64,000 bases of DNA. Source: Candidatus Omnitrophota bacterium. GTDB taxonomy: Bacteria > Omnitrophota > Gorgyraeia > Zapsychrales > JANLHA01. How positions within the stretch are numbered: the stretch's first letter is position 1; every line of letters starts with the position of its first letter. The DNA lies in assembly GCA_029560465.1 (NCBI GenBank), contig JAKQKX010000045.1, positions 152,260 to 216,259 on the forward strand, written 5' to 3'. The notes below the pieces were generated by a model. That model made no database searches. It worked only from the letters and a program-made list of their open reading frames with translations, and had not been told where the DNA came from. A program made the translations under genes and the position numbers. Shown one piece after another: positions 4,243 to 49,152 of this stretch.

Positions 4243-4263
4243 CTTTCTGCTGGGGTATCAGCC

Positions 4264-5118: not shown

Positions 5119-5142
5119 AACAAACCTCTTCTATGGTTATTT

Positions 5143-6978
5143 TTATGCTGAGGGAATCGTAAATCGGAACTGGTTCCCTTCCAACCCCGGCTCAACGGTT
5201 AATGTCCCGCCGTGCCGCAGAATGATCTCTTTCGTAATAAAAAGGCCGATCCCTGTCCCCTTCACTTTTTCCATTCCCCGGTAAACCACGCGCGAAAATT
5301 TTTTAAACAACTTTTGCCTGTCGACTTCCGCGATCGGCATCCCGTCATTGTAAACGGTAACTTCCACACCGTTATCGACGGCGTGCGCCCGGACACGGAT
5401 TTCTCCGTTTTCCTTGCCGTACTTCACCGCGTTGCTCAAGAGGTTGTTAACAACAATCTGCATGAGGCCGGGATCCGCGTGAATCATAAGATCCTGGGGA
5501 ACGTCGCAAGAGATCCTCATCTTCTTTTCGTCCGCCTGCTGGGTGAACGTGTCGACCGCGCTTTCCAGGACATGCTCTTTAAGCAGGATATCCTGTTTAT
5601 CGATCGTCATTTCATCCTTCTCGATACGGCTGAGGTTCAAAAAATTCTTGACCGTGATCGCGAGATAATCCAAGTTCCGGGCCATGGACTTCAAAACCCG
5701 GCTTTGTCTTTCGTTCACCGGCCCCAGGATGCCTTTCTGCAACAAATAGGTATTCAGGACGATCGAGGACAGGATCCCCTTCAGTTCATGCGACACAAAG
5801 CCGATCAGGTCCAGATAACGCTTGTTCAGCACAGCCAACTTGTCATTGGTTTCCGCCAGGGTCTGCTCCCGCTCCGAAAGTTTTTCAATCATGTCGTCAA
5901 AGGCCAGAGTTAACGTCTTGACTTCTTTAATATTAGAGTCGGCCGGGACCAGGGTTTTCATGTCTCCCTGTGCGATTTTTTTGCTCTTCTCCGCCAAGGC
6001 GGTCAAAGGCCGGATCATAACATTCGTCAATAAAAACGAAACCCCCAACGTGGGCAAAGCCGTCAAAAGGATGATGGTCAAGAGGCTCAAAAACATCCTG
6101 TTTTGAACCGCGACAAACGGCTTTTCCAGGATCCCGACGTAAAGAATCCCGATAATCTTCCCCCGGATATCTTTGATCGGCTCATAGGCCGTCAAGTACC
6201 AGTCGGTGACCACAAAGGCCCGGTCACTCCAGGTCTTCTTCTGTTCCACGACTTTATGATACACTTCCTCGGAAACTTGCGTGCCGATCGCCCGGCGCCC
6301 ATCATCGTCCAGGACATTCGTCGCCACGCGGATATCACCCTGAAAGATAGTGACGGTTCCAACCGGTTTGCCTTCGTATAATTCCCGGTCAAAGACCGCA
6401 TTGTTGATCCGGTCAATCAAGGCAAAATTTTTATTGATGATCCAACCGCCGCACAGGACTTTATCGATCCGCCCTTGGTGATCCAAAAACGGCCGGGCAT
6501 ACTCAAGCCCTAGCGCCGTGTCCAAAACCTTGACATCAGATTTACGGGCCTTGGGGGTGATCTGTCGGACCTTGATCGTGAAATCCTGGGGCTGCTCTTT
6601 TAATTCCGCGGAAGACAACACCCGGGTCCCCCCAAACGTGCGGCCCTCCTGAAACGCGGCCTGGACGATTTCGCTAGGAAAAGTTTGGGCCCGGTCGCGG
6701 TCAATCCAGTACAGATAATCTAAATGTAAACTGTTTTTTAAAGCCTGAATATCGTCATCCCTTTCAATCAGGGTAAACGTCAGGGCGATTGATTTCAGAT
6801 AATCCTCATAAACACTCCGGACCGTTTTTAATTTCTGCTGCACTTCCTTTTGCGCTTCATCAACGACAGCCGTCTTAAGCACAAAAAAACTGTACAGGGA
6901 CATGCAAACGCCCCAAAAAATGATCAACGCCAGTAAAAGCAGGACAATATACGTTCGCAGACGGATAACGGCCTTCAT
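5143..6978 (-). CDS. Sensor histidine kinase: TM - extracytoplasmic Cache-like sensor (~260 aa) - TM - HAMP - HisKA - HATPase_c
   Basis: TM1 at aa 10-33 and TM2 at ~297-320. Cache-type segment with DWYLTAYEP and GILYVGI. H-box GFVSHELKG. N-box LLSNAVKYG. G1 VYNDGMPI. G2 GTGIGLFI. The start ATG overlaps the rex stop as ATGA. Confidence 0.85.
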   Translation of the reverse strand: MKAVIRLRTYIVLLLLALIIFWGVCMSLYSFFVLKTAVVDEAQKEVQQKLKTVRSVYEDYLKSIALTFTLIERDDDIQALKNSLHLDYLYWIDRDRAQTFPSEIVQAAFQEGRTFGGTRVLSSAELKEQPQDFTIKVRQITPKARKSDVKVLDTALGLEYARPFLDHQGRIDKVLCGGWIINKNFALIDRINNAVFDRELYEGKPVGTVTIFQGDIRVATNVLDDDGRRAIGTQVSEEVYHKVVEQKKTWSDRAFVVTDWYLTAYEPIKDIRGKIIGILYVGILEKPFVAVQNRMFLSLLTIILLTALPTLGVSFLLTNVMIRPLTALAEKSKKIAQGDMKTLVPADSNIKEVKTLTLAFDDMIEKLSEREQTLAETNDKLAVLNKRYLDLIGFVSHELKGILSSIVLNTYLLQKGILGPVNERQSRVLKSMARNLDYLAITVKNFLNLSRIEKDEMTIDKQDILLKEHVLESAVDTFTQQADEKKMRISCDVPQDLMIHADPGLMQIVVNNLLSNAVKYGKENGEIRVRAHAVDNGVEVTVYNDGMPIAEVDRQKLFKKFSRVVYRGMEKVKGTGIGLFITKEIILRHGGTLTVEPGLEGNQFRFTIPSA

Positions 6979-24576: not shown

Positions 24577-24872
24577 TGTCCCCTCTCCTTTCATCTCATC
24601 GCGTGATTTCGCTACAATCACTTGAATCATTATCTGCCCCTCTCCCCGCTTATACCTAAGAAAGGGATTGTTTCCTTAACAATAGTTTCCATTCTACTCC
24701 AAACAAAAACCCATAACAATCTATTCAACAAAATAACATTCTTCTTCCTCCCTAATTCTCGGCTTTCCTGGACATTCGTGACTGATGTTCCAAGGCGGGC
24801 TGTTGAGAACGCACTTCTCTTGCAAATTTTCAGGTCACCGGTTTTTTACGATTCAACGAGCCCTTTAAATTT

Positions 24873-33036: not shown

Positions 33037-34485
33037 TCAGCCCGGATGCCTGCGGGGCGGCTTGTAAATATGCGTAGCCGGCCCGAAAAAAGTCTCCGCC
33101 GCTTCCATGACGGTTTCGGACAGGGTGGGATGAGGATGAATACTATCTTTCAGGTCTGCGGCGGCCGCGCCCATTTCAATCGCTAAAACCCCTTCCGCGA
33201 TCATCTCCCCCGCGCCCACACCCGCGATAGCCATCCCCAGAAGGAGGCCGGTTTTGTCATCGACAATCAGTTTGGTCAGGCCGTCTGTCCGGTTCAGCGT
33301 GACCGCCCGCCCGGAAGCGGCCCAGGGGAATTTCAGGACTCTGACTGGCAACCCCTGCTCGACGGCCTGGCTTTCGGTGATACCGCACCAGGCGATCTCA
33401 GGGTCGGTAAAAACAACGGCGGGAATCGCCTTGGGCGGCAAAGCCGCCTGCTGCCCGGCAACCGCCCCGGCCGCGGCCCGGCCTTCATGTGAAGCTTTAT
33501 GAGCCAGCATAGGGTTGCCGACGATATCGCCGATCGCGTAAATAGCCGGGTCATGCGTCTGGCCGGCGGTTTTGACAGCGATAAAGCCCCTGTCGGTCAG
33601 CTGAACCTGGGTGTGTTCCAAACCCAGGCCGGAAGCGTCCGGCTTGCGGCCGATGGCGATAAGGGCCTTGTCATAAATTTCAGAGGACGCCTGCCCCTCC
33701 CTGTCTTCAAAAAACACCTCAACCGCCTCACCCGTATCTTTTAGCCCGCTGACTCTGGTGTTCAGTTTGATGGCTTCAAATTGGGACGCCAACTTTTTCT
33801 TAAGCAGAGCGCTTAAATCCGCGTCCACTCCAGGAAGAAGCCCGGCCGTCATTTCCACCACGGACACGGCGCTTCCCAACTGGGCGTAAACAGTGCCCAG
33901 TTCAAGCCCGATATACCCGCCGCCGATCACCAAAAGTTTCTTCGGGATGCCCGGCAAAGCCAGCGCGGACGTGGAATCCAGAATCTGCGGGGATGCCGGG
34001 GCAAAAGGAAGCGTGATGGGCACGGACCCGGTCGCGATGATCGCGTGTTCAAATTCTATGGTTATTGCGGAGCCGTCCGTAGCAGCCACGGTCACGGACC
34101 GCGAATTTAAAAAGGAAGCGTGCCCCTGGATAAAACGGACCTTCCTTTGCTTGCACAACTGGCCCAGTCCGCCGGTTAATTTGGAAACAACTTTGTCTTT
34201 CCACTGCCGGATACCTTCAACATCCACGCGGGGTTCTCCAAATTCGACGCCGAACTCTTTCGCTTCTTTTGTTTCGGAAATAATACGGGCCACGTGCAGA
34301 AGGGTTTTGGACGGGATACAGCCCCGGTACAGGCAGACGCCTCCGGGATTCTTTTCAGGATCAACACAGGTGACCTCAACCCCCAGGTCAGCGGCGTGAA
34401 AGGCGGCCGCGTAGCCTCCCGGCCCGGCGCCAATAACTAGGAGTTGGGTTTTTAATAATTCCATGTCCGGCCCCGTTTTCAGCAA
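33037..34485 (-). CDS. lpdA: Dihydrolipoyl dehydrogenase
   Basis: FAD motif GAGPGGYAAA, redox-active disulfide GGVCLYRGCIPSK, NAD motif GGGYIGLE and a C-terminal HPHPTLSE interface motif. Confidence 0.88.
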   Translation of the reverse strand: MLKTGPDMELLKTQLLVIGAGPGGYAAAFHAADLGVEVTCVDPEKNPGGVCLYRGCIPSKTLLHVARIISETKEAKEFGVEFGEPRVDVEGIRQWKDKVVSKLTGGLGQLCKQRKVRFIQGHASFLNSRSVTVAATDGSAITIEFEHAIIATGSVPITLPFAPASPQILDSTSALALPGIPKKLLVIGGGYIGLELGTVYAQLGSAVSVVEMTAGLLPGVDADLSALLKKKLASQFEAIKLNTRVSGLKDTGEAVEVFFEDREGQASSEIYDKALIAIGRKPDASGLGLEHTQVQLTDRGFIAVKTAGQTHDPAIYAIGDIVGNPMLAHKASHEGRAAAGAVAGQQAALPPKAIPAVVFTDPEIAWCGITESQAVEQGLPVRVLKFPWAASGRAVTLNRTDGLTKLIVDDKTGLLLGMAIAGVGAGEMIAEGVLAIEMGAAAADLKDSIHPHPTLSETVMEAAETFFGPATHIYKPPRRHPG

Positions 34486-34750: not shown

Positions 34751-35752
34751 TCACGGGGATTCTGTCAATATTTTCCCTTCTGAAATATCTGTTCCCGCCC
34801 CTTCCGGTCCTAATATGGGGCCGAGGTCCCGCGCGAGCTCTTCCGAAAAACGCGTGGCCCCCTTATAATTCAGATGCTGGGAATTGAAGAACATGTCTTC
34901 CTGCCGGGTGATGCCGGCGGACGAATAATCCAGCAAGGGAAGGCCGTACTGTTGGGCGTACTGGTGATACAGGTTTTTGGCTTCCCGATAATTAACGACA
35001 AAATCATTAAACTCATAATACCCCGGCGCGTAAACCAGGATCAGCCGGATATGTTTCTCCCGGCACAGCCGGATCAAATCTTCAAAAGCCTCCTTCCCCT
35101 CAGGCGTGATCTGGTCGACAATCCCGTGTGGATACAGCTTTTTCACGGTGGCGATGTCGCTCTTTCTGTTCCATGCCATGTCCACGGGGCAATACCCGTT
35201 ATTGCACTGCGGCGGGTCTTCCTGTCCGGTCAGCCCCTGCCAGGCGTCCACCGTGAAAGCCGGGCTCAACAAGGCGAAACTGTACAAGGGAACATACCGG
35301 GCGAGGATAAAATGTTTGGAAATCCGGCTGAGCGGGCGGTAAATTTCCTCTTCATTCAAATAAGGGACAAACTGCCCCGGATTATACGCCCGGGGTTTCC
35401 TCAGCATATTGCGGCCCACCACCTGAATAATGGCCTCCGGCGCCTTGTTGTGTTTTAAATAGACTTTCAACCGGGCCACCTGGATGCTCAGCGAGTTTCC
35501 TTTCAGCGCCAGGTTAAAACATTTTTTCTTAAAATAATCTTCTAGCGTCAGGACATCCACCCCGCACTGGGCCCGGGACGCGCCGGTCACCAGGATGTCC
35601 GCGTTGATCCGGCCGTTGACAATCCGGTTCCAATCGCCGAAGTCCCCGGTTGTCCGCGCCCTGAAGCCTTCCATAAGATAGGAATGCCCGGCCATGGAGA
35701 TGGCCAGGAACAACACCGTAAACGCGGTCATTTCTTTGAGGGCGTGTCTCAT
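34751..35752 (-). CDS. Membrane-anchored partner of the MBOAT protein (DltD/AlgJ-like, putative O-acyltransferase accessory protein)
   Basis: N-terminal TM anchor plus a ~300-aa exported domain. It lies immediately downstream of and codirectional with the MBOAT gene, the genomic context typical of DltB-DltD and AlgI-AlgJ pairs. No catalytic motif confirmed. Confidence 0.4.
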   Translation of the reverse strand: MRHALKEMTAFTVLFLAISMAGHSYLMEGFRARTTGDFGDWNRIVNGRINADILVTGASRAQCGVDVLTLEDYFKKKCFNLALKGNSLSIQVARLKVYLKHNKAPEAIIQVVGRNMLRKPRAYNPGQFVPYLNEEEIYRPLSRISKHFILARYVPLYSFALLSPAFTVDAWQGLTGQEDPPQCNNGYCPVDMAWNRKSDIATVKKLYPHGIVDQITPEGKEAFEDLIRLCREKHIRLILVYAPGYYEFNDFVVNYREAKNLYHQYAQQYGLPLLDYSSAGITRQEDMFFNSQHLNYKGATRFSEELARDLGPILGPEGAGTDISEGKILTESP

Positions 35753-35755
35753 AAT

Positions 35756-37195
35756 TTAAAATTGGAAATAAATAAATTCAATCCCTTCAAATTTACCCAG
35801 GAAAATAATCATCCAAAACACACAATAATAAAAACTCCACCGGAGCGGCTTGGGCCACCCGGCGATCACATCCCGCAGCCGCCAGCGGGTCTGCAGCCCG
35901 TGTACGAGTAAAATAAGCCCGACGCATCCCAGCGAAACCACAAAATCAAAACTTTTATAAGGGAACCGCGTGCCAATATCAAAAGTCAGCATATTTCTGA
36001 GCAGGATACCCGCCTCGCTCAGGGTCCGGGCCCGGAAACACACCCAGGACAGTAAAACAAGATGATATGTCACCACGGCCTGCAAAAAGCGGCGGAGCCC
36101 GGGATGGCCGTCCAGCCAGAGCCGCCTCTTCATCCGGCCCCGCAGATCTTCCGTCCAGATAGCCCCCAGCATATACAGCCCGTGCAAAGCCCCCCAGGCG
36201 ACAAACGTCCAGTTCGCGCCGTGCCAAAGCCCGCTGACCACGAACACCACCAGGAGGTTAAAATACCACCGCCGGACAGGAACCCGGTTCCCCCCCAGCG
36301 GAATGTATAAATAGTCCCGGAACCAGGTGGACAGGGAAATATGCCAACGCCGCCAGAAATCGGCGATGGACGACGCGAAATACGGCCTCCGGAAATTTTC
36401 CATGATATCAAAACCCATCACTTTGGCCGCGCCGATGGCGATATCCGAGTAACCGGCGAAATCGCAATATATCTGAAAGGCGAAGAAATTGGTGGCCACG
36501 TAAACCGGCAGGCCGCGCCACCCCTGCGGGTCCCCGTAAACAAGGTTCACGAAATGCGCGAGCCGGTCGGCGATCACGATCTTTTGAAAAAAGCCCCACA
36601 GCATCAGCTTGAATCCGTCGCAGGCCCGTTCATAATCAAACTCATGATTTTTAAAAAACTGTGGCAGAAGATGCGTGGCCCGCTCAATGGGGCCGGCGAC
36701 CAGCTGGGGAAAAAACGCCACGTACAGGGCGAACACGCCGAGATGTTTTTGCGGCGCCATCTTCCCCCGGTACACATCCAAGGTGTAACTGAGCGTCTGA
36801 AACGTGTAGAAAGAGATGCCCAACGGGAGCAGGACATCCAGGTGCGGGATGACATAATCCACGCCTGCGGTTTCCAACAGACGGTTCAGGTTTGCGGAGA
36901 AGAAATTAAAATATTTAAAAACCCCCAGAATACCCAAATTAGCGGCCAGGCTCAGCAGTAAAAACAATTTACGCCTTAACGCGCCTCTCCCTTGGGACGG
37001 CGCCACGTTAAGGCCGGCTAAATAATCAACAGCCGTCGACGCCAGCAATAACAGCACATACGGGACATTCCAGACCATATAAAAGGCGTAACTGGCCAAA
37101 AGCAGCCACGCCCAGCGGAAACGGAACGGGAGGAGGAAATAACCCGCGACCACCACGGGGAAGAAAATCACAAATTCTAAAGAATTAAAAAGCAT
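35756..37195 (-). CDS. MBOAT-family membrane-bound O-acyltransferase (DltB/AlgI-like)
   Basis: Polytopic protein with the conserved MBOAT histidine region (FWRRWHISLSTWFRDYLYIPLGGNR ... SGLWHGANWTF). Confidence 0.8.
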   Translation of the reverse strand: MLFNSLEFVIFFPVVVAGYFLLPFRFRWAWLLLASYAFYMVWNVPYVLLLLASTAVDYLAGLNVAPSQGRGALRRKLFLLLSLAANLGILGVFKYFNFFSANLNRLLETAGVDYVIPHLDVLLPLGISFYTFQTLSYTLDVYRGKMAPQKHLGVFALYVAFFPQLVAGPIERATHLLPQFFKNHEFDYERACDGFKLMLWGFFQKIVIADRLAHFVNLVYGDPQGWRGLPVYVATNFFAFQIYCDFAGYSDIAIGAAKVMGFDIMENFRRPYFASSIADFWRRWHISLSTWFRDYLYIPLGGNRVPVRRWYFNLLVVFVVSGLWHGANWTFVAWGALHGLYMLGAIWTEDLRGRMKRRLWLDGHPGLRRFLQAVVTYHLVLLSWVCFRARTLSEAGILLRNMLTFDIGTRFPYKSFDFVVSLGCVGLILLVHGLQTRWRLRDVIAGWPKPLRWSFYYCVFWMIIFLGKFEGIEFIYFQF

Positions 37196-37326
37196 AAAAG
37201 TCAGGTCAGGCGCGTTGTTTCATTGTGGGGTTAAATATTAAAAGTTAAAGCCGGCGCTCTTTCTTAATCAAAAATTATACAAGCCCCGCCATCAATGGGA
37301 AAGGACATTCTTAATTTATACAAAGA

Positions 37327-37384
37327 AAAACCCCCTTGGGCTTTAAGCGTCATCTCGGCACCAAAACGCGCCCAAGGGGGTTTT
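37327..37384 (-). terminator. Rho-independent terminator downstream of the 2058-aa gene
   Basis: 15-bp perfect inverted repeat AAAACCCCCTTGGGC ... GCCCAAGGGGGTTTT with T-runs on both strands. Confidence 0.6.
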
Positions 37385-37413
37385 CATACCCTATTCATGA
37401 AAAAGCCATGAAC

Positions 37414-40400
37414 TTAATTATAATTCAACAAGCTCAACTGATCTTTATCATCAAAGAAAAACTGAACGCCTGTTTTTTCCGATGGCTGGGGTTGACGTTT
37501 CTGTCTCTCTTCCTCAACCGGGACCCTGTGACCGCCCTGCGCCGGGGCTTCCCCCAAGTTTCTGCCCAGCAACATCGGCAGGTTCGGGATAGGCGTAATA
37601 TTGATAATGACCGGCACAAATCCGTCAATATTCATATCCCCAACAGGCTGTTGCGGCAGAGGCAGCGGGATGCCTTTATTATCCCGTTTGATCTGCAGGT
37701 TTAACAGAGCCGGGTTCAAATTGATACCGCCGAGGGGCGATGATTGCGCTTCCAGCTGGCCATTCAGGCGCTGCGCGAAATTCAGGACACCTCCGGCCGA
37801 AACACCCCTGGCCCGTCTTTCCGACCGGAGCAGCTGATTGAGCTGCCGGCCAGCGGTATTTCTCTCGATCGAGCCATTGACAAATCCGTCCAGCAACTCC
37901 CTGGTGGCGCGGTTCTGCAGTTGGAACTTGCCCATGGTTTTTTCCACGACCTGGACCGGAGAAGACACATCTTCTTCTGCGGCAAGGTCCGTTTCCGCCA
38001 ACGGGCCTGCCGTGAGTTCTATCTGCGCCATCGTGTCCATAACCTGCTGCAGGCGCAAAGCTTCTTCGGCCGGGGTGGTTTTCCCAAGCTCTTGTTCAAG
38101 CGCGAAATCCGAAAGAATCGCCCCAACTTCCTCTATAATACCGGCCGCTTCCTTGCGGATCTGCTCTAAAACAACCCGGTCTTCCACCGCTTCAGTTTCC
38201 ACCCTCTGGAGGACCGCTTCGACTTCATTCAAAAGGACATTCAATTTCTCCTTATTTTCCGCGGTCAATTGCAACGGAGATGATTGAGAAACCGTGACCA
38301 AATCCACCAGAGGCATCCTTTCCGCCCGCCCGGCCCCCAGCATCGTCATCTGCAAATCAAGGTCATTATCAATGGATAACGCGACGGAACTGTTGAACAC
38401 CGCGGCGGCCATCTTCAAAATCTGGTCCGCCTTTGCCTTGTCAATCCCATCGATCTCGGTCAATTTATTTTCCGCCTGGTCAAACTGACCGGCCCTCTCC
38501 AGGTCAATGGCCTCTTTTAACGCCCGGTACGAAACGGCGTCAAACAGGCCGTAACCGGCCGCCAAACTGGCGGGCAGCAACCGGAACATGGCGTCTTCTA
38601 TCGGGTAAGCCCCGTCCTGCCATTTAATGCCTATAATCCTGGCCGCCGGCCTTAACGGCGGCATGGCCTCCGGATATTTCAACTGATTGGCCAGCAAAAC
38701 CGTGATCGCCGAATAGGCCCAGGCGTCCTGAAGTCCATAAACTTCCCGGTCAACGGCCAGGACATCCCCGATCAGGTCCAGATCTTCCGTGTCCAGAGTA
38801 ATGCTCTGCAGAACCGGAGAAGATGAAGACAACTGGTCTTTTAAAGCGGCAATCGTGTCGAAATTAAACGGCTTTTCAACCACTTCAAGGAAAAGCCCGC
38901 TCTTCAACCCCGAGCCCTCGTCAACGACGGATAACCGCGCCATCTCCCGGCTGTCCCCAGTCATCAGCACGACCGGCACATCACGCTCGGAACGGATCGT
39001 CCGGGCCATCTGTTCCCCGTTCATCACCGGCATTTGCAGGTCAGTCACAACCAGGCCTATATCCGGATTCTCCCGGAACAGACTCAAACCCTCTTCCCCG
39101 TTGGCCGCGGTGATGATTTCCGCTTCGGTGAAGATATCACCCAACTCGTCCCGCAGCAACAACCTCATGCCGTCGTTGTCATCGACAACAAGAATTTTAT
39201 TAAGAGGAGAAGAAGCCAACCTGCCTTTTAAATCAATGACCGTCTTCAACTGATACGGCTTCTGAATGACTTCGGTGAAAATCCCGCTTTTCAGCCCCGA
39301 GGCCTCGTCCACTTTAGACAGCCGCTCCACTTCACTGTAGTTCCCGGATACCAGGACGACCGGAATATCACGCTCAGAACGGATCGTCCGGGCCATCTGT
39401 TCCCCGTTCATTGCCGGCATTTCAAGATCGGTAACCACGAGATCTATATCCGGATTCTCCCGGAACGTCCTCAACCCCTCTTCGCCGTTCACGGCTGTTA
39501 TAACTTCCGCCCCGGAGAAAATAGTACTAAAAACATCCTTGGTCAAATTTCTCACCTCTTCCGTGTCATCCACGACAAGGATCTTTTTGATGACAGGAGA
39601 AGAGAGAAGCGTGGCTCTGACGAGTTCCGGGATCACCCCCAACTCGGCGGCCACCGCCTCCGGCTCAAGCGACTGGCCCTGCTGACTGCGGGCCTCATAA
39701 TACTCCTTCACCACCGCAGGCGGCACCACCCGCCCGCCCATCAGCAAATCCCTCATCCTTTCCTGGTCCTGACCCCGGATCGGCAGAGGGTTTTCAATTG
39801 CCAACTCCACCAAATCCCGTGCTTGGGCAAAAATCAAACCCCGCACTTTATGCAACCAAACGGCAATGACGGCCACTTGTGACTGATAGACAATTTGCTG
39901 CACCACAAAGTTATCAAACGTCGTCAATCCCAACCCGTTTAACGTGCGCAATTTTTCTCGAATCTGTCCCAAGGCCTCTTCACGGAACGCGTCACCCCGC
40001 ACAGTAATATCACCCAAGCCCCCGGATGTTATTTCAATCAGCTCTTCCGCCTTTGCTTCCTGCTGAGCGCGCAATTCATCCGTCTCATACCCCCACATTT
40101 TAAACGCGTTCGCCACCTGCAAAGACACCCATGGCACCTTCCAGAACTGCCCGCGCTTGCGCACATCGGTGGATGAGGTGTCCATCGGCTGGGTGATGGT
40201 TGACAAGCCCAGCCTTGGTAATCCTCGCGCGTTCAACTCCCCTGCCAGCTTCGCCTCATACGCTTGAAGGAGCGTTTCATCAACCTCTTCACCGACACGC
40301 TGGCTAAAAATAATATTCATTTTCTGAATATCCTTGCGCGCCTGAAACCCTCTTAAGCCCTGCTCTCCGGCCGTCATTTTGTTGAGGAGTTTACGCGGCA

Positions 40401-43400
40401 CATCCGGAGCGAATAACGCCTGATACACAACCCTCCGGGCGTCTTCCGTTTCCAGCCCTGTCCCTTCCAGGTCGCTTAACAATAATTCTTCCGGCTTCCC
40501 TTCCTCTAAATAAGCGCTAAACTTCCCGCTCACCGGCTTGCCTTTCTCGGTATCCAGGTATCCACGTTCCTTTAACCGGTCCACCAGGGCCTGAAACGCG
40601 CTCTCCACCGGCTGCCCTTCCGCGTTAATATATCCCGCGTCAGCAAACATTTGCTGAATCCGCTGGCGCTCCACCGCGTTTTCGATCCCCGCGATCGTGC
40701 TCATAAAATCCGCTTCCGTGATCGCCACTTTCTTTAAGGCATAAAGGTTCGCGTGGTCTGATCCCGCGCCGTAAAACAGATTCATCGGCTGGTTCGCGTT
40801 AAGTTCCGCGAGATAAAAAATTACCGTTTCCCCATCCGCGGAAAACAAGTCCAGCATTTCTTTGGGAAGTGTGGTGTACTGCACAAACGGCTTTAAATAC
40901 TTCTCAAAAATCACCCATGTAAACGCCTCCCGGATCGACAGCGAACTTAAATCCGGTTTCCGGGTCGGGTCGCTGTTGTCGATCATAATCACGACCTTGT
41001 CAATCTTATTCTTAATGATCGCTTCCAGGATCATCCAGATGTGCCCGGATTGCCACGGGTCGCCTTTCATGGGCCAAAACAAGACATTCGGAACCGTCCG
41101 CTCTCCTGTCAGCTTTATCGGGGTCCCCTCCGGCTCTTCCATGGACACCCGCACATTCACCTGTTCCGGGAATATCTCCCGGGCCTTGACCAGCTGCGCA
41201 ACCTGGGCCAACTGATCGGCAAACACCGCGTACGTGTCGTCATTCAGCTCCTGCAGGATCCGCTCTTCCGACACGCCCGTGGTTTCCGCTAAAAACGGCA
41301 CCAGCGACATCATCGTGTCATACGACTGCCCGAAATTGCGCGCCAAGTCCCCCACGACTTCGTCAGTCGACAGCTGTGCAAACTGCTGCGAAACCGGCGA
41401 GGACGGACGAACGACCACCTGGCCCCGCTCCCGCACGATTCTTTCCAAAGCGGTGAAAACATCCAACTGCGGCCAGCGTGAAGGAAAAGTTATCGGTTCC
41501 GCTTTCAGGGTCGCCCTGTCATAGCGGTCCGTTTCTGAAGCCGACAAAGACGCGATCAGAACATCAGCCATGACTCTGGCGTTGGATTTCCTGTTAAATT
41601 CATATTGTGTCCGGGAATGTTCAACAAAGGCCCGGGTTTCGTCGCTCAACTCGGGGAAATAATGCTCGCCGATTTCTTTTAAGGTACGCCCTCCCTGCAC
41701 CATACGGGAAATATCCGCGTTGAGCCTTGACAGAAATGCCGCGGCCTGCGCCTCGGTCACCCCGCCTCTTCCCTGCGACCCCACCACATATCCGAGGTAA
41801 TGACGAACCCGCAACTCCGCGTACTGCTGGCCGAAGGGGCTGAGATCCTGGAACCGGATCGTGCCGGCCGCGATCGGAGACGATAAAGCCGCCTGATCCA
41901 GGAGGGCAAGGTCCGCTTTGTTTAATTTCTCTAAAAGCGCGTCTTCGGCTTTCATTAACGCCTCGGCCAGCCGGAAGCTGTAACTTTCCTCGACGATCTC
42001 ATTGGCCACATCCACTAAAGCCGTCAACTGGGCCCCAATTTTTCCTGCGATATCAGCCGGCAAAGCGTTCCGGCTGGCCCAAAAAAGCACCCCCAGGATC
42101 TTGTTCTCCCGGGCCAGTGCGCTCTCGGCGACTGCACGGTTCGCATCCGCGTAAGAAGATCTGTCGCCGTAATTAAGAGCAACACGTTGAAACTCCTCAA
42201 TATTATCCTGGTACAATTTCAAAATTTCCGGAGACACCACCACCGGCGAAGCCACCACATCCGGGGCTTCAATATCCGCAGCCGTCACAACACTCTTCGC
42301 CGCCAATGTCGCTGAGGGGTTTTCCGCCAGGATCGCCGATACCTGAACCACAGGGCTGGAAATGTTCAAGCCCTGATCTACCCTCGCCCGTAAAGGAGAT
42401 GACAGCGGGATATCCTCAAGGTCCACTGCCCGGACCGCGCTTGACATGGCAGACGCATCAAACCCGCCGGAGAAATATTTACGCGGGATGACCTGTTTCG
42501 TCGACATGTCGTAATCTTCCCGGATATAGTTATAGACCCCCTTCCGGAAAGCCTCTAAATACTGGTCATAAATCTTCTGTTTAACCTCCCGGTCATCAAC
42601 ATCAACCCCTTTAATCTTTCCTTTATTCACATACACCTGGCCGAGCAGGGTCGCCCGCAAATTCTGTTTATACCAGGTCGCTAAAATCATGGAATTGTAG
42701 ATCTGCCGGAGCTTGGCGAAATTTTTTCCTTCATTCACCTCTTTTTCAATCTCCGGCAGGAGGATTTCCCGGACGACATCCGAAGAAACTTTACTTAAAG
42801 TTTTAACATAATCTTCCGTGATCTTGGTCGTGCCGAGTTTCTGGTTATCCAGATTTTTCTCCAAGGCAAGGTAATCTTCTTCCAGCATCACCTTCAAATG
42901 GCTGTCCACGACAAAAGCGCTGCCGTTATGTTCCACGACCAAAGCGTCTTGAGGCACGATCCACACTTTATTAAAGGTGTTGATCGGAATATTGGTTGTG
43001 CCGTATTCCTTGGCCGCGCGGTCGTACACTCTTTGCCAAAATTCCTGACCCAAATCCTGTTCCGGATAAATCAACGACGCGACAAGCTGTTTGAGCATAT
43101 AATCCTGGGCCAGGAGGTCACGGCCCATTTCCGTGAACCCGAACCCTTCGGGGATAATCCGGTCGCTTTCATACGGAGAGAGGTTCACCCACAAATCTTC
43201 TTCAGGGATCGTCAACGTCGCCAGGAAATATTTAATAAGCTTATTAGACTCTTCTTCCAGGTCCTTCCCGGTCAATTCGTCCTTGCCGGAATCAATAATA
43301 AAATCGAATTTCAAAGGGTTTTCTGGGTCGATCTTAATGCCTTTCAGGCATGCTGGCGTGTACACATCGCTTTTCAGCACCATTGACCCGGGCATCGGCA

Positions 43401-43590
43401 GGCCTAGAATCCCTTTCCGGGGTTCCGCGGCCGAAAGTGTCACAGGAGGCAGAATGAGTCCCGCTAAGAAAGAATAACTCATAAATGACACCAAAAGTTT
43501 ATACGGCCATTGGGTACGACAGTTTCGAAAATAGCTAAACATGTGCGTTCTCCTCCTGATTTTTGAGAATTTGAAAATGAAATACGACAA
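37414..43590 (-). CDS. Giant (2058 aa) multidomain protein. It has an N-terminal signal peptide or anchor, a central HxGH/ISSxxIR nucleotidyltransferase-like domain, two tandem CheY-like receiver domains and a long C-terminal region.
   Basis: N-terminus RRR...LLVSFMSYSFLAGLILPPVTLSAAEP. Motifs LFWPMKGDPWQSGHIWMI and LSSLSIREAF correspond to the (H/T)xGH and ISSTxIR motifs of cytidylyl/adenylyltransferases. REC1 is KILVVDDTEE...DLVVTDLEMPAMNGEQ...VVLVSG...IQKP. REC2 is KILVVDDNDG...GLVVTDLQMPVMNGEQ...VVLMTG...VEKP. An S/P/A/V-rich linker lies at ~aa 430-480. Confidence 0.75.
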   Translation of the reverse strand: MSYFIFKFSKIRRRTHMFSYFRNCRTQWPYKLLVSFMSYSFLAGLILPPVTLSAAEPRKGILGLPMPGSMVLKSDVYTPACLKGIKIDPENPLKFDFIIDSGKDELTGKDLEEESNKLIKYFLATLTIPEEDLWVNLSPYESDRIIPEGFGFTEMGRDLLAQDYMLKQLVASLIYPEQDLGQEFWQRVYDRAAKEYGTTNIPINTFNKVWIVPQDALVVEHNGSAFVVDSHLKVMLEEDYLALEKNLDNQKLGTTKITEDYVKTLSKVSSDVVREILLPEIEKEVNEGKNFAKLRQIYNSMILATWYKQNLRATLLGQVYVNKGKIKGVDVDDREVKQKIYDQYLEAFRKGVYNYIREDYDMSTKQVIPRKYFSGGFDASAMSSAVRAVDLEDIPLSSPLRARVDQGLNISSPVVQVSAILAENPSATLAAKSVVTAADIEAPDVVASPVVVSPEILKLYQDNIEEFQRVALNYGDRSSYADANRAVAESALARENKILGVLFWASRNALPADIAGKIGAQLTALVDVANEIVEESYSFRLAEALMKAEDALLEKLNKADLALLDQAALSSPIAAGTIRFQDLSPFGQQYAELRVRHYLGYVVGSQGRGGVTEAQAAAFLSRLNADISRMVQGGRTLKEIGEHYFPELSDETRAFVEHSRTQYEFNRKSNARVMADVLIASLSASETDRYDRATLKAEPITFPSRWPQLDVFTALERIVRERGQVVVRPSSPVSQQFAQLSTDEVVGDLARNFGQSYDTMMSLVPFLAETTGVSEERILQELNDDTYAVFADQLAQVAQLVKAREIFPEQVNVRVSMEEPEGTPIKLTGERTVPNVLFWPMKGDPWQSGHIWMILEAIIKNKIDKVVIMIDNSDPTRKPDLSSLSIREAFTWVIFEKYLKPFVQYTTLPKEMLDLFSADGETVIFYLAELNANQPMNLFYGAGSDHANLYALKKVAITEADFMSTIAGIENAVERQRIQQMFADAGYINAEGQPVESAFQALVDRLKERGYLDTEKGKPVSGKFSAYLEEGKPEELLLSDLEGTGLETEDARRVVYQALFAPDVPRKLLNKMTAGEQGLRGFQARKDIQKMNIIFSQRVGEEVDETLLQAYEAKLAGELNARGLPRLGLSTITQPMDTSSTDVRKRGQFWKVPWVSLQVANAFKMWGYETDELRAQQEAKAEELIEITSGGLGDITVRGDAFREEALGQIREKLRTLNGLGLTTFDNFVVQQIVYQSQVAVIAVWLHKVRGLIFAQARDLVELAIENPLPIRGQDQERMRDLLMGGRVVPPAVVKEYYEARSQQGQSLEPEAVAAELGVIPELVRATLLSSPVIKKILVVDDTEEVRNLTKDVFSTIFSGAEVITAVNGEEGLRTFRENPDIDLVVTDLEMPAMNGEQMARTIRSERDIPVVLVSGNYSEVERLSKVDEASGLKSGIFTEVIQKPYQLKTVIDLKGRLASSPLNKILVVDDNDGMRLLLRDELGDIFTEAEIITAANGEEGLSLFRENPDIGLVVTDLQMPVMNGEQMARTIRSERDVPVVLMTGDSREMARLSVVDEGSGLKSGLFLEVVEKPFNFDTIAALKDQLSSSSPVLQSITLDTEDLDLIGDVLAVDREVYGLQDAWAYSAITVLLANQLKYPEAMPPLRPAARIIGIKWQDGAYPIEDAMFRLLPASLAAGYGLFDAVSYRALKEAIDLERAGQFDQAENKLTEIDGIDKAKADQILKMAAAVFNSSVALSIDNDLDLQMTMLGAGRAERMPLVDLVTVSQSSPLQLTAENKEKLNVLLNEVEAVLQRVETEAVEDRVVLEQIRKEAAGIIEEVGAILSDFALEQELGKTTPAEEALRLQQVMDTMAQIELTAGPLAETDLAAEEDVSSPVQVVEKTMGKFQLQNRATRELLDGFVNGSIERNTAGRQLNQLLRSERRARGVSAGGVLNFAQRLNGQLEAQSSPLGGINLNPALLNLQIKRDNKGIPLPLPQQPVGDMNIDGFVPVIINITPIPNLPMLLGRNLGEAPAQGGHRVPVEEERQKRQPQPSEKTGVQFFFDDKDQLSLLNYN

Positions 43591-43774
43591 GATTTGTCAA
43601 AAAATCTTGGGACAGGGTGATTTGAAAGGGTAGATTAAATATATCATATCTTATTAATAGGGGCAAGTTTCGGATTAAAATTAAATTTTTTGATTTCAAA
43701 GAGTTATGAAAGATATCTATCTTTTGTGAAAAATAAACTCCAAGACAGAGCTTGAACAAAGAAAGGGCGGGATG

Positions 43775-44254
43775 TTAGTAGCTGTTCAGCTTCTCTTGCG
43801 CTATGTGAAAGTCGGCCGTCAGCCCGGCCTTTAAACGCTTTTCCGCTGACTGACCCGCGTTTATTTCCAAGACATACAAAGCCGGCTGAACCGGCCCATA
43901 CACCGGACAAGGGTCGCTTTCGCAAGGAGGGACACGCTCTTCTATATGAATAATGCAGCGATTTTGATCCAGCCAGATAATATCCAGTGGGATTAAGGTG
44001 TCTTTCATCCAAAACCCGTAAGCAGAACTCACCGGAAAAACAAAAAGCATCCCCTGATCCAGGGCCATTTGGGGGCGATGCTGCAGTCCTCTCTGCCGGG
44101 TTCCCGGTGTTAACGCCAGCTCCACCTCATAGCAGTCCCCGGAAAAACACACCCGGTCCTGGGACACCGCGCTCCGGCAGGAAAAAAGCAACGGCAACAC
44201 CAGCACGGCAACAATCCCAAACCGTCTTTGTCGCAGGGCCTTCCTCATAGTCAA
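43775..44254 (-). CDS. DUF192-family protein (exported)
   Basis: GMLFVFP...FWMKDTLIPLDIIWLD matches the DUF192 core. A signal peptide is present. Confidence 0.65.
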   Translation of the reverse strand: MTMRKALRQRRFGIVAVLVLPLLFSCRSAVSQDRVCFSGDCYEVELALTPGTRQRGLQHRPQMALDQGMLFVFPVSSAYGFWMKDTLIPLDIIWLDQNRCIIHIEERVPPCESDPCPVYGPVQPALYVLEINAGQSAEKRLKAGLTADFHIAQEKLNSY

Positions 44255-45036
44255 ATATCATTCCCCGTTAAGTTCAGATAATCCTTGAACCGCAACTCCC
44301 CTGTGATCGCCTGGTGCACGATCCCCATCCTTTCGGAAAGATACGGGTGGGTCCGGAAATAATTAATCGGCTGCGCCGGAGCCCTCTCTCCTTCCTTCTT
44401 CAGGATCTCCAGCACCTTGATCATCTCCTGGGGATCATATCCGGCCTTTTTCATGTATTTCACGGCCAGACGGTCGGCTTCAAACTCATCCTGCCGGGAA
44501 TAAGCAAAAAAGATGCTGGTATAAATCGCGTTCACGCCCACCACGGCGTCCGCGTCCTGGGAGGCGATGGCCAGCCCCTGTAATAACGCATACCCATACA
44601 GACTCTGCATCCTCTTAATTCCATGGCGGGCTGTAATGTGCCCCAGTTCATGGGCGACAACACCCGCGATCTGGTCATCCTTTTCCATCTTATCAATCAA
44701 TCCGCGGAAAACATACACATATCCACCCGGGAGGCTCACCGCGTTGACCTTATCCTCATCAATCACCCGGATCGTGTAAACCAGGTCTTTCCGGTCGACC
44801 ACCGGCACCAGGCGGGCGAGGATCGATTCCATCCTCTGGTTCAGCTCCAGATCACGGCTTATTTCGTAATTCCGCTCGACCTGACGGGCGACAGCGTCCC
44901 CGACATTAATTTCTTTTTCCGTCCCATACATGAGCCGCTCTTCCCGTCCCGTGGCGAGATTATATTCCGAAGCGCAGCCCCCGGCCGCCCAGACGCATCC
45001 CCACAAAAAAATAATCCAACGCGCCTTCCTTCTCAT
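44251..45036 (-). CDS. M48-family zinc metallopeptidase (lipoprotein-type signal). The start was moved to MRRKARW at 45036, where its ATG overlaps the maf stop as ATGA.
   Basis: HEXXH motif AHELGHITARHG and a downstream E, plus a signal peptide with WAAGGCAS. Confidence 0.75.
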   Translation of the reverse strand: MRRKARWIIFLWGCVWAAGGCASEYNLATGREERLMYGTEKEINVGDAVARQVERNYEISRDLELNQRMESILARLVPVVDRKDLVYTIRVIDEDKVNAVSLPGGYVYVFRGLIDKMEKDDQIAGVVAHELGHITARHGIKRMQSLYGYALLQGLAIASQDADAVVGVNAIYTSIFFAYSRQDEFEADRLAVKYMKKAGYDPQEMIKVLEILKKEGERAPAQPINYFRTHPYLSERMGIVHQAITGELRFKDYLNLTGNDI

Positions 45037-45620
45037 AATAAAGACACCCCACATTGTTGAAGCATCCTCCGGAGTTTCGCCATCGGCAAACCGATCACGT
45101 TGGTGTAACAACCTTCAATACGACCAATGAACAAACCGCCCACGCCTTCGATATTATAGCCACCGGCTTTATCCAAAGGAGAAATCTTCCGATGATAACG
45201 GCTGATTTCTTCCGGCGACAAAGGCTGCATAAACACTTTCGTTTTCTCGTAATCCACGATCCGCCGCCCCTTGGCAACATCCACAACCGCGACCCCCGTG
45301 TAAACCCAGTGCGGCAAACGGCATAAACGGAGGAGGACCTCGGCCGCTTCCTGGACGTGACGGGGTTTCCCGACCACGTTTTTATCCCCATCGAACACGA
45401 TGGTATCCGCGGCGATCACAACCCCCTCTTTCAGGCGCGAAGCGACATCGTTCGCTTTCAAAAGGGCGTTGTATTTAACCAAGGCCGGACGGGTCGACGT
45501 CAGGAGATGCCGCTCCTGTACCCGGCTTGGCGAAACTTCAAACGTCAGGCCGGCTTCTCTCAAAAGCTTTTCCCTGCGCTGAGACGCAGACGCTAAAATG
45601 ATTTTAAACGGTGGTTTCAT
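45033..45620 (-). CDS. maf: Maf-family nucleoside triphosphate pyrophosphatase
   Basis: N-terminal ILASASQRR..LL..AGL.F and the full-length Maf pattern. Confidence 0.85.
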   Translation of the reverse strand: MKPPFKIILASASQRREKLLREAGLTFEVSPSRVQERHLLTSTRPALVKYNALLKANDVASRLKEGVVIAADTIVFDGDKNVVGKPRHVQEAAEVLLRLCRLPHWVYTGVAVVDVAKGRRIVDYEKTKVFMQPLSPEEISRYHRKISPLDKAGGYNIEGVGGLFIGRIEGCYTNVIGLPMAKLRRMLQQCGVSLL

Positions 45621-45638
45621 AGGGCTCCTGCCGGCGCA

Positions 45639-46205
45639 TTATTTATCCCGCAAAAAATCAGCGGCCGTAAAAAAAGAAATCAGTTGGCACCCCCGGGCCG
45701 CCAAAGCCTCTTTCGCCCCCTCCTGCCGGTCCACAAGGCAAACCGCGGTGCGGGATTTAAAACCAGCTTGGGCCAGGACATCCAGGGATTGCAAAAAAGC
45801 TTTTCCGGTCGTCGCAACATCATCCACCAACAGGCAGTCCGCCCCTTCCGGCAGCAACGGGCCTTCTATCTGCTGCTGTTTCCCGTGCGCTTTGGGGGCC
45901 TTGCGGATAATAAAAGTTTTCAGGCAACAATTGTCCTGATGGGCTAAAACATTAAGCGCTCCCAAGAGGGGGTCCGCGCCCAGGGTGGGCCCGCCGATAG
46001 CGTCAAAATTCCGCCGCCGGGCGAAATCCCAAATCATCCTGGCGGCATAGTAGACTCCTTCCGACAGGAGCGTGACCCTTCTGGCGTCAATATAGTAATC
46101 GCTTTCTTTACCGGATGATAAAATGATCTTCTCCCGGAAAAAAGCCTGCTCTTTAAGAATGGAAAAAAGCTTCTCTTTGTCCTGCTTGTCTACGGAATGG
46201 CTCAC
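45639..46205 (-). CDS. pyrE: Orotate phosphoribosyltransferase
   Basis: PRPP-binding motif LLVDDVATTGKA and the type I PRTase fold pattern. Confidence 0.85.
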   Translation of the reverse strand: MSHSVDKQDKEKLFSILKEQAFFREKIILSSGKESDYYIDARRVTLLSEGVYYAARMIWDFARRRNFDAIGGPTLGADPLLGALNVLAHQDNCCLKTFIIRKAPKAHGKQQQIEGPLLPEGADCLLVDDVATTGKAFLQSLDVLAQAGFKSRTAVCLVDRQEGAKEALAARGCQLISFFTAADFLRDK

Positions 46206-48248: not shown

Positions 48249-49037
48249 TCACTCCTTCAGCCACTGCTGCGGCGGGTTGCGCAGGAAACGCTCGGTGAAG
48301 ATATCATCCGTTAGCCCCACATCGTAAGCCACCTCGCTGAATTCCGTGATGGTATGAGAATTGGCGTTCAAATCCGCAGCCTTCATCTTGGTGACTGTCG
48401 GGTAACCCTGAATATCTTTGACCTCAAGGGCCTCGATCGTGCGGTACAATTTCCCGGATTTATCGTAATACTCCGCCATCATAGGGACAAAATTATTCTT
48501 GTCTATTTTCATCATGTAATAAGAAAACTCGACGGACGCGGCATCCTTAGGGACATTCTTGATAATGTAGTGCGCGGCATCGCTGGCGGACAATTCGTGA
48601 GTATCCAAGTCCATGGAACGCCCGGATATGTCCTCGTATAAGAATGTCGTCCCCGCGAAGCTCGAGCGCTTGTCGGAGGCGGCGATCCGGCGCACCAGAT
48701 CCATGGCCGGCAGATACAGCCAGCGGTCGTCATCCTTGCCGCCGGCATGCTTCCAGACGATATAGCTCATGCCTTTAACGTCATTGGGCTTATGGAAATA
48801 AACAAAATACTTCTGATCGCCGCCCTCCTGGATATTCAGTTTTAATATGGTCAGCTGGCGCTGCCGGGTGCGGCCCTGGGCGTCGGTCACCACCATCGTG
48901 GCCTTGGCGTTGCCGTCCTTCCCTTGATAATACGAGCGGTTATTCGCCTTAGCGACAATCTCATCAACGGTCAGATCCTGGGCCCACGCCGCGCTCACCC
49001 CAAAAAACATGACCAACAGGACAAAAAATTTTTTCAT
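48249..49037 (-). CDS. LolA-like / DUF1329-type outer-membrane lipoprotein-sorting-like protein. The start was moved to MKKFF at 49037, which has a GGAGG RBS.
   Basis: Signal peptide MKKFFVLLVMFFGVSAAWA. It sits in the conserved triad with an OMP and an RND/MMPL exporter. Confidence 0.5.
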   Translation of the reverse strand: MKKFFVLLVMFFGVSAAWAQDLTVDEIVAKANNRSYYQGKDGNAKATMVVTDAQGRTRQRQLTILKLNIQEGGDQKYFVYFHKPNDVKGMSYIVWKHAGGKDDDRWLYLPAMDLVRRIAASDKRSSFAGTTFLYEDISGRSMDLDTHELSASDAAHYIIKNVPKDAASVEFSYYMMKIDKNNFVPMMAEYYDKSGKLYRTIEALEVKDIQGYPTVTKMKAADLNANSHTITEFSEVAYDVGLTDDIFTERFLRNPPQQWLKE

Positions 49038-49152
49038 ATCCCCTCCCATGTTAAAAGTCAATAATCCTACTCTCCTCGTCATTTCAAAAGCCGGCCCATC
49101 TACCCCCCGATCCACCCGCACAAGAACACCCTCCCGTCCGATACGCCTGGGA

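Follow-up and report, generated by a model that had tools for sequence, protein, structure and literature searches.

A very large family of modular Omnitrophota proteins with an export-type leader, two conserved end elements and exchangeable cargo

In this study, we focus on a gene on the minus strand of a 64,000-nucleotide stretch from Candidatus Omnitrophota bacterium (GTDB lineage Bacteria; Omnitrophota; Gorgyraeia; Zapsychrales; JANLHA01; assembly GCA_029560465.1, contig JAKQKX010000045.1, positions 152,260 to 216,259 of the forward strand), the whole of which is referred to below as the window, and on the protein family to which the gene product belongs. By sequence comparison, the gene is shown to be a member of a very large family of modular proteins, all sampled members of which come from Omnitrophota, and whose modules are shuffled and duplicated like cassettes. 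Each protein is built from an extended leader, an N-terminal domain (N-handle), a variable set of cargo modules and a C-terminal element (C-handle). This leader-handle-cargo-handle family is new to curation, with no entry in Pfam (2025 copy) or NCBIfam (2026). The reading that we favor tentatively, with a probability of roughly 0.4, is that the protein is exported by the Sec pathway, that its end-pieces are shared targeting or anchoring handles, and that its cargo acts outside the cytoplasm of the producer. The evidence consists of sequence features, from which we infer every step of localization.

The reading frame is uninterrupted at 37414..43590 on the minus strand (2058 codons counted from the first TTG), as described in a first-pass annotation that had been made from the sequence without database searches. 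That frame is retained here, and its start is moved to the ATG at 43542, which lies 9 nt downstream of a Shine-Dalgarno sequence, AGGAGG, read directly from the sequence (43552-43557, minus strand). With this probable start, the coding sequence covers 37414..43542 (stop codon 37414-37416) and encodes a protein of 2,042 residues, which are numbered from the Met at ATG 43542; all coordinates given below for this gene refer to the minus strand. The N-terminal 'RRR' of the earlier description is the AGGAGG sequence read in frame upstream of this ATG. The leader that follows the ATG is considered to be translated because it is conserved at the protein level in homologs. In the public JGI gene call for the same protein (P0001, 100% identical), translation begins at Met54, and the leader and the start of the N-handle (window 43381-43542) are absent; as this example illustrates, automated gene calls may hide the signal peptide in part of the family.

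A search with the whole protein returned the near-orthologs P0001 (100% identity), P0003 (86%) and P0004 (83%), labeled as Omnitrophota 'response regulator', along with more than 100 proteins of 1,100-3,500 aa whose matches, at 50-65% identity, cover only about 17-20% of the query. The 120 proteins among the matches listed constitute the first-round homolog set. When ten segments of the query were compared with this set by local BLAST, segments 36-380 and 1935-2042 were common to all 120 proteins, and the middle segments were common to a few close relatives only. The architecture is the same in every listed homolog (120/120), comprising an extended Sec/signal peptidase I (SPase I)-type leader, the N-terminal domain, variable cargo and the C-terminal motif. 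With the N-handle as query, an exhaustive HMMER search gave 8,066 cluster representatives under a threshold of E<=1e-3 and 6,310 under E<=1e-30, and the size of the family, counted in 50%-identity clusters, is more than 6,000. In nearly all of the 150 matches listed, the N-handle starts at approximately residues 36-45, while protein lengths range from 420 to 4,969 aa. Scanning one genome per species yielded at least 598 matches. All 79 retrieved loci come from Omnitrophota metagenome-assembled genomes (MAGs), some of which are labeled 'uncultured Planctomycetales', and at least 5-6 paralogs are present in single MAGs. Two complete minimal members (603 and 633 aa) possess the N-handle, about 150-200 further residues and the C-handle.

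The N-handle (residues 40-360; 42463..43425) is the family-defining domain. It comprises about 320 aa directly after the leader, runs through the motifs LNLPxPG, WVNLSPYE and NTFNKVWI, and ends at approximately residue 360 in an invariant RKYFSGG. It is 47-64% identical to that of non-orthologous members, with WVNLSP, FNK.W and YFSGG invariant; many of the invariant positions are polar, including Ser, Lys, Asp and Glu, and there is no His or Cys among them. No match to the N-handle was obtained in searches of Pfam (2025 copy), NCBIfam (2026), PADLOC or the PDB. An AlphaFold2 model of the N-handle and the C-handle together, built from an alignment of whole homologs, predicts the former to be an alpha/beta domain with three beta-hairpins and long helices, at a mean predicted local distance difference test (pLDDT) score of 63.6 and with core blocks (about 60-110, 190-220 and 260-290) at about 82-94.

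The C-handle (residues 1937-1993; 37564..37734; GGINLNPALLNLQIKRDNKGIPLPLPQQPVGDMNIDGFVPVIINITPIPNLPMLLG) is the second family-defining element, strongly conserved in sequence and modeled with low confidence. Its consensus, GGI[D/N]LNP.LL.LQIKRDG.G.PLP...QP...M.I.GF.PVIIN.TP..NLP.LLG, extends over about 57 aa near the C-terminus and is found in 120 of the 120 first-round homologs and in 188 of 225 sampled proteins, the other 37 being probably truncated. It is followed by a variable C-terminal tail (residues 1994-2042; 37417..37563) that ends in ...DQLSLLNYN. Across the family, the tails show a weak terminal (E/Q)-L-S-L-x-N pattern, which may be a terminal recognition signal. The extreme C-terminus, 'VQFFFDDKDQLSLLNYN' (residues ~2025-2042; 37417-37470), is nearly identical across the ortholog group P0002-P0006. 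Word-indexed homolog searches with the C-handle, or with the cargo module C described below, returned almost nothing useful.

The leader (residues 1-39; 43426..43542) is, as far as its sequence goes, a textbook Sec/SPase I pattern: a basic n-region (R6, R9, K15), a hydrophobic stretch at 16-34 (19-residue window score 1.78) that runs on into the PP helix break and the c-region, and small residues at -3/-1 in LSAA|EP. Residues 12-30 are helical in the AlphaFold2 model, with block-mean pLDDT of 86-87. In 107 relatives, the n-region spans about 15 aa, in which basic residues number four at the median and acidic residues none; the h-region, rich in aromatic residues, spans about 16 aa and is followed by the PP break, and A-x-A followed by Q, E or A closes the leader in 93. 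Similar signal peptides, including the Gln at +1, are present on two other products of the window, a TonB-dependent receptor and a further protein predicted to be exported. A hydrophobicity scan revealed no transmembrane-grade segment beyond the leader in this protein. The signal-like N-terminus noticed in the first-pass annotation is real. The topology suggested there, an N-terminal anchor with the bulk of the protein in the cytoplasm, is disfavored by the basic n-region, by the PP and the AxA|Q-type site in 93 of 107 relatives, and by the lack of any later transmembrane segment. If the leader is read at face value, the whole chain would be exported. A twin-arginine translocation (Tat) signal was considered and rejected, since the n-regions are variable mixtures of K, R and Q, with no RR in this protein and no invariant twin-arginine motif (S/T-R-R-x-F-L-K); lipobox, sortase and PEP-CTERM memberships were likewise rejected on their defining features.

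Between the handles, the identifiable cargo of the family consists in large part of central metabolic enzymes. It includes phosphoglucomutase/phosphomannomutase (PGM/PMM), UDP-glucose pyrophosphorylase (UDPGP), PGI, PGK, GAPDH, aldolase, TIM and enolase, as well as isocitrate lyase, malate synthase, hexokinase, PEP-utilizing enzymes, and starch synthase and branching-enzyme domains, the commonest being the PGM, UDPGP and starch-synthase modules. Other cargo comprises GGDEF, RelA/SpoT, PP2C, HEAT, radical S-adenosylmethionine (SAM), helix-turn-helix (HTH), RNA polymerase alpha C-terminal domain and DnaJ modules. In the protein studied here, a spacer (residues 361-395; 42358..42462) that contains the first two SSP[L/V] junctions (381, 395) leads to module A (residues 396-553; 41884..42357), which is helical by inspection and common only to the close ortholog group, and to module B (residues 555-713; 41404..41880). 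Module C and two receiver domains, discussed below, are followed by module F (residues 1575-1753; 38284..38820), with a weak helix-hairpin-helix hint only (E=0.12), module G (residues 1755-1859; 37966..38280), coiled-coil-like by eye, and module H (residues 1861-1933; 37744..37962). Domain scans with Pfam, NCBIfam and PADLOC, which covered the whole protein and eight segments of it, gave the receiver as the sole accepted domain.

Eleven copies of a short motif, SSP (in one case ASP) with V, L or I as the next residue, are present in this protein and bracket every module; the receivers begin 4-7 residues after such a junction, and the C-handle stands directly after one. Among the 120 proteins, 274 occurrences of SSP compare with about 37 expected, and selection on it acts at the protein level, because the codons used for SSP vary in this gene. 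In other lineages the junctions are of the type D-x-A-M-[L/V], or of neither type. When paralogs were pooled for each MAG, the ratio of xSP[VILM] to DxAM[LVI] was 6:0 and 5:0 in two MAGs and 1:14, 0:4 and 0:4 in three further ones, so that the junction motif is uniform among the paralogs of one MAG and different between MAGs (loci L002-L079). Exchange of whole modules is evident from several proteins: the order of modules A and B is swapped in P0005, while P0002 and P0006 contain exact duplications of at least 500 aa, the former of a module C-type unit (residues ~713-1322 and ~1325-1934) and the latter of UDP-glucose pyrophosphorylase (from ~818 and ~1358), with copies that start at junction-like sequence. 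These duplications could be either real cassette duplications or assembly artifacts.

Cargo module C (residues 715-1313; 39604..41400) is a complete module resembling NadD, the nicotinate-mononucleotide adenylyltransferase, with helical extensions at its N- and C-termini, and it recurs in P0007, P0008 and P0010 (39-42% identity) and in P0009 (34%). Its core (residues 808-1150; 40093..41121) contains the motifs PWQSGH (829-834), RKPDLSSLSIRE (861-872), GAGSDHA (925-931) and TSSTDVRK (1122-1129). The first-pass annotation had proposed a nucleotidyltransferase-like core at this position, to be given up if profile searches failed to support its motifs. Formally this outcome did arise, because residues 715-1313 alone gave no Pfam match at E<=10 and no nucleotidyltransferase in a PDB sequence search, yet support was obtained through the module family. 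An alignment of 13 modules (A1) displays, as invariant or near-invariant positions, the Pro and second His of P-x-x-x-G-H, together with K...L...R, G-E, G-x-D-H and S-x-T-x-x-R; its profile matches several NadD and PPAT structures weakly (E=0.014-0.05), and PF01467 is matched by three of the 13 homologous modules (best E=6.2e-7). The structural comparison suggested at the outset points the same way. An AlphaFold2 model of residues 808-1150 (pLDDT 90.9, predicted template-modeling score 0.88) was compared with the PDB by Foldseek, and the top 42 matches were all NadD, with E-values from 3e-6, probability 1.0 and template-modeling scores (TM-scores) normalized to the target of 0.45-0.74 (0.56-0.74 over full-length alignments). 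The assignment of a nucleotidyltransferase fold to residues 808-1150, predicted as the structure is, is sound.

At the level of individual motifs, the earlier description requires correction. In HMMER alignments, GDPWQSGH (827-834) is placed opposite the NadD 'FNPVHLAH', so that the position named for the HxGH signature of this Rossmann-type fold holds while its letters do not: the sequence here is QxGH, with Gln for the first His. The second His of (H/T)xGH is kept in at least 90% of the modules of this family; at the first position, this protein and its closest relatives have Gln, and more distant modules have His. LSSLSIREAF, previously taken for ISSxxIR, aligns with the NadD segment 'K.DvSaaeHRlaM', and the true counterpart of ISxxxxR is TSSTDVR (1122-1128), which aligns with 'DISSTKIR' and whose S316 and R321, in the numbering of the module alignment, are invariant. 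Compared with NadD/NMNAT proteins (PF01467 superfamily), module C shares the Rossmann-like fold (Foldseek E=3e-6, target-normalized TM-score about 0.7) and the ordered motifs GxxxP-x-x-x-G-H, K...S...R, GxDH and SSTxxR. It differs in the Gln just mentioned, in a large, mainly helical insertion of roughly 135-170 aa between GxDH and SSTxxR, which the compact relatives P0011 and P0012 lack, in extensions of ~90 aa at the N-terminus and ~160 aa at the C-terminus, in having no Pfam match alone, and in being embedded in an exported-type giant protein. A PADLOC 'E1-E2' model also matches module C at E=4.8e-4. The start of the module (residues 717-795; 41158-41394), 'LSTDEVVGDLARNFGQSYDTMMSLVPFLAETTGVSEE...', is similar to one repeat unit of a TAL effector, 'LTPDQVVAIASNGGGKQALETVQRLLPVLCQAHGLT'; the phmmer value for this resemblance (E=9.4e-4 against PDB 3ugm) is summed over many repeats, with no single stretch significant.

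Directly downstream of module C, PF00072 matches two stretches (E=9.3e-29, 100.3 bits against a cut-off of 30.2), and many NCBIfam response-regulator models match both copies. Receiver 1 (residues 1318-1440; 39223..39591) contains D1325, D1326, D1372, S1399 and K1428, and receiver 2 (residues 1447-1570; 38833..39204) contains D1454, D1455, D1501, T1528 and K1557, so that the acidic pair, the phospho-acceptor Asp, the Thr/Ser and the Lys are all kept, in agreement with the claim of two complete receivers. These residues, whose degeneracy in orthologs would have counted against the first-pass annotation, are also kept in P0002-P0005, as read from the sequences. The two receivers are 63% identical to each other, on the basis of which they are probably a recent tandem duplicate. 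As had also been noted, no kinase is found among the neighbors of the gene, and the only histidine kinase found in the window is a Cache-HAMP-HisKA-HATPase gene (5143..6978) beside [FeFe]-hydrogenase genes, where it has its own REC-NuoE partner. This hydrogenase locus (658-6978, minus strand) consists of a HydA-like gene (658-2403), a NuoF-like gene (2434-4242), a receiver fused to a NuoE-type [2Fe-2S] thioredoxin-like ferredoxin (4264-5118) and the kinase gene, an arrangement that resembles a two-component system connected straight to a subunit of the hydrogenase.

An export leader is thus combined with cargo of cytoplasmic type. This paradox is real: because the receiver residues are kept in orthologs, it stands and extends to the whole family, covering thousands of proteins. 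In the mechanism that we propose, the hydrophobic, sequence-conserved leader would direct the nascent chain co-translationally to Sec and be cut at AxA|Q/E, and in the absence of a stop-transfer segment the whole chain would come to lie outside the cytoplasmic membrane. Through the two handles, a single envelope machinery common to the family would then recognize or anchor its members, by a logic analogous to that of two-partner secretion (TPS) domains, the C-terminal domains of type IX secretion system (T9SS) substrates or the arms of MARTX toxins. The cargo would be active in a nucleotide-containing space beyond the producer's cytoplasm, for which an attached prey or host cell, or the zone of contact with it, is the most plausible candidate; the receivers would be regulatory cargo of a generic kind, and kinase modules on sibling proteins would perhaps phosphorylate them. 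A more far-reaching proposal, which we regard as doubtful, is that the family constitutes a phylum-wide Sec-dependent platform, for delivery or for display, that exports whole sets of metabolic and signaling modules to attached prey or hosts, with the junctions serving to release the modules. Chlamydia is grouped with Omnitrophota in the PVC superphylum. Export of this kind appears less exotic because RNA of the Omnitrophota predator V. archaeovorus occurs within prey cells (PMC13153191), because Chlamydia secretes its own phosphoglucomutase and glycogen enzymes (PMC9251005, PMC4829429), and because the conserved N- and C-terminal arms of MARTX toxins deliver a shuffled central array of effector domains (PMC5218395).

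Several points weigh against the proposed export. The cargo of the family is overwhelmingly of a cytoplasmic type that requires ATP, NAD, SAM or Fe-S clusters, and it includes DNA-binding domains. Chains pass through Sec in the unfolded state, and no Fe-S assembly or phosphodonor is known outside the cytoplasm. Proteases, nucleases, lipases and murein hydrolases, the classical cargo of predation, are rare in the 120 listed proteins. The N-handle model is moderate (pLDDT 63.6), and the C-handle is neither docked nor folded in it. The NadD-like module may, from its sequence, be non-catalytic, because the first motif His is Gln. In addition, no recurrent transporter or protease gene was found upstream of 75 family loci, where the only recurrent genes were paralogs (13 loci) and where the downstream flanks are mostly uncovered.

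One alternative is retention of the protein in the cytoplasm. The leader would remain uncleaved, or not productively engaged with Sec, and would hold the protein as a membrane-tethered scaffold at the inner membrane face, which we regard as rather unlikely; with similar reserve, the content of such a scaffold might be described as a cortical metabolon that feeds the synthesis of envelope or coat polysaccharide and is regulated locally by the receivers and by GGDEF modules on sibling proteins. The cargo agrees well with such a function, being mostly PGM/PMM, UDP-glucose pyrophosphorylase, PGI, PGK, starch synthase/glycosyltransferase, REC and GGDEF modules that need cytoplasmic substrates, and its radical SAM, HTH, RNA polymerase alpha C-terminal domain and DnaJ modules would be sensible only in the cytoplasm. 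A 2026 preprint also assigns 46% of long Omnitrophota proteins to a 'TM-only' class, TM denoting transmembrane, and reads them as having a cytoplasmic bulk (10.64898/2026.06.07.730766). By the positive-inside rule, however, the basic n-region would be cytoplasmic and the remainder outside, with no second hydrophobic segment to return the chain; the AxA|Q site and PP kept in 93 of 107 relatives would be needless for an uncleaved anchor, and the leader is like bona fide signal peptides of the same genome. Another possibility, which could be combined with either location, is a polyprotein in which SSP[V/L/I] (elsewhere DxAM[L/V]) is cut by a lineage-specific protease, possibly the N-handle itself, and the modules are released separately. 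The motif is 7-fold enriched, lies exactly at module borders and is selected on the protein rather than the DNA; its uniformity within genomes and difference between them are as expected from co-evolution with a trans-acting factor, the N-handle is rich in invariant polar residues including Ser, Lys, Asp and Glu, and proteolytic processing of Omnitrophota giant proteins was proposed by West-Roberts et al. (10.1101/2023.11.21.568195). Yet no protease fold or family is detected in the N-handle, whose invariant residues include neither His nor Cys, some minimal members are almost devoid of cargo, and the junctions could equally well be structural helix-breakers or relics of cassette recombination, so that we consider processing of this kind improbable.

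The first-pass annotation had offered, as one of two possibilities, a purpose-built signaling protein, in which phosphorylation of the tandem receivers would switch the adjacent nucleotidyltransferase on or off. Intact receivers do stand directly downstream of the NadD-like module, and this adjacency is kept in the close orthologs P0002-P0005. Such a dedicated switch is nonetheless very unlikely, because the NadD-like module also occurs without receivers, together with phosphomannomutase (P0007, P0008), glutamate dehydrogenase (P0010) or a pfkB kinase (P0011); receivers, in turn, are found with many other, unrelated cargos. P0002 has two NadD-like copies and one receiver, receiver 2 of the present protein is probably a recent duplicate, the first motif His is Gln, and no kinase is adjacent. 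The NadD-like module and the receivers are accordingly two of many interchangeable cargo modules. A last alternative, that the gene is a mis-assembled or mis-called fusion of neighboring genes, could draw on P0002 and P0006, whose exact duplications of at least 500 aa may stem from assembly, and on the fact that the gene caller behind P0001 placed the start of the same protein 53 residues downstream, at M54. It is effectively already refuted by the full-length architecture, which recurs at 83-86% identity in independent assemblies (P0003 on seven contigs), by synteny kept in three species, by a frame open over 6.1 kb, and by N- and C-termini common to thousands of relatives.

The closest described relatives are the giant Omnitrophota 'multi-enzyme metabolic cluster' proteins and the Archaeovorins of two preprints (West-Roberts et al. 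2023, bioRxiv 10.1101/2023.11.21.568195; 10.64898/2026.06.07.730766). The giants are, like the present protein, long chains from the same phylum tiled with PGM, starch synthase, REC, radical SAM, aldolase and PPDK domains; most have predicted signal peptides and/or transmembrane helices, and the authors note the conflict between location and enzyme content. One of the two preprints places aldolase and other glycolytic domains in a region 'predicted to be in an extracellular region', and the other describes a 147-kaa 'multi-enzyme metabolic cluster' with a predicted signal peptide and transmembrane helices; in the 2026 preprint, DeepTMHMM signal-peptide calls are given for many long Omnitrophota proteins, the present one not being among them. 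The giants described there have at least 10,000 aa (Archaeovorins at least 30,000) and dozens of transmembrane helices, and their peptidase domains are of the C39 or S8 type, whereas the present chain is 2,042 aa long, with a single hydrophobic segment at its N-terminus and without a peptidase domain. Membership of the Archaeovorin type was rejected on the absence of C39/S8 peptidase or SecA-like domains and on the same size and single segment. A term search of both preprints for the N-handle, the C-handle and the junction motifs returned nothing. The family is related to, yet distinct from, the described giant Omnitrophota proteins.

Other systems offer analogies of logic. In MARTX toxins (PMC5218395, PMC4453568), as here, conserved N- and C-terminal regions flank a variable modular array, and repertoires are shuffled between strains; effector domains are released at defined inter-domain sites, a MARTX feature. 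The present protein differs in having no glycine-rich RTX-type (A/B/C) repeats or cysteine protease domain by Pfam, in its Sec leader as opposed to a C-terminal type-1 secretion signal, in its metabolic and signaling rather than cytotoxic cargo, and in its neighborhood, which contains housekeeping, MBOAT, M48 and DUF192 genes and no type-1 secretion genes. With the defining features lacking, MARTX membership was rejected, and the likeness is one of logic only. TpsA/CdiA proteins of two-partner secretion are likewise very large exported-type proteins with a long, sequence-conserved leader and a variable remainder. In TpsA, a conserved domain of ~250-320 aa right after the leader acts as a secretion handle. 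That domain forms a beta-helix, whereas the model of the N-handle is alpha/beta and has long helices, and TpsA membership was rejected on the absence of any Pfam TPS or ESPR match and of an adjacent TpsB-like gene. A T9SS cargo was rejected as well, as residues 1935-2042 gave no Pfam match at E<=10 and no confident C-terminal fold. The Chlamydia case (PMC4829429, PMC9251005) offers the parallel of housekeeping sugar-phosphate and glycogen enzymes, including phosphoglucomutase, sent to a host-derived compartment. There, however, type-3 secretion signals are carried by separate, normal-sized enzymes, unlike the Sec-type leader and handles on multi-module chains found here, and no host compartment is known for the present bacterium.

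The order Pribosyltransferase-Maf-M48 peptidase-DUF192-[family gene]-MBOAT-~325-aa protein is kept in three species (window 34751-46205, minus strand; loci L080, L081 and L083), and the ~325-aa protein beyond MBOAT has an N-terminal hydrophobic segment. At this syntenic locus, the family gene itself differs in cargo, encoding 2,042, 2,049 and 2,906 aa. M48 and MBOAT were rejected as partners of the family, since the synteny is limited to this ortholog group; acylation of Ser in the SSP motif by MBOAT would be speculation. At the P0003 locus (L080/L081), the MBOAT pair is followed by a gene for an RHS/YD-shell protein of 689 aa (16813-18882), instead of which the window has a dihydrolipoamide-dehydrogenase-like gene (33037-34485). 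Elsewhere in the window, two open reading frames on the minus strand have no Pfam match, one of 780 aa (22288-24630) and one of 426 aa (46964-48244). The second carries a clear signal peptide, '...TVACA|QAVD', and is located upstream of a LolA-like gene (48249-49214) and of a gene for an MMPL/RND transporter (49153-51657).

Omnitrophota are ubiquitous, uncultured, ultra-small bacteria that are thought to be predators or parasites. What had appeared as long proteins with odd domains is now a sharply defined family of more than 6,000 clusters, with three fixed parts and exchangeable cargo. The receivers and the NadD fold are ordinary parts; the family that contains them is absent from the curated collections. 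The N-handle, for which no fold relative was detected in the searches made, deserves both an experimental structure and an entry in Pfam. Should the export reading prove wrong, thousands of proteins would carry a textbook signal peptide that has another role, and either outcome bears on the reliability of topology predictors in Omnitrophota. If it is true, cytoplasm-type metabolism and two-component signaling would be run outside the cytoplasm of the producer, and a platform exporting them, should it exist, would amount to an 'exported metabolism' that takes in glycolysis, sugar-nucleotide and glycogen synthesis, and NadD-like, REC, GGDEF and HTH modules.

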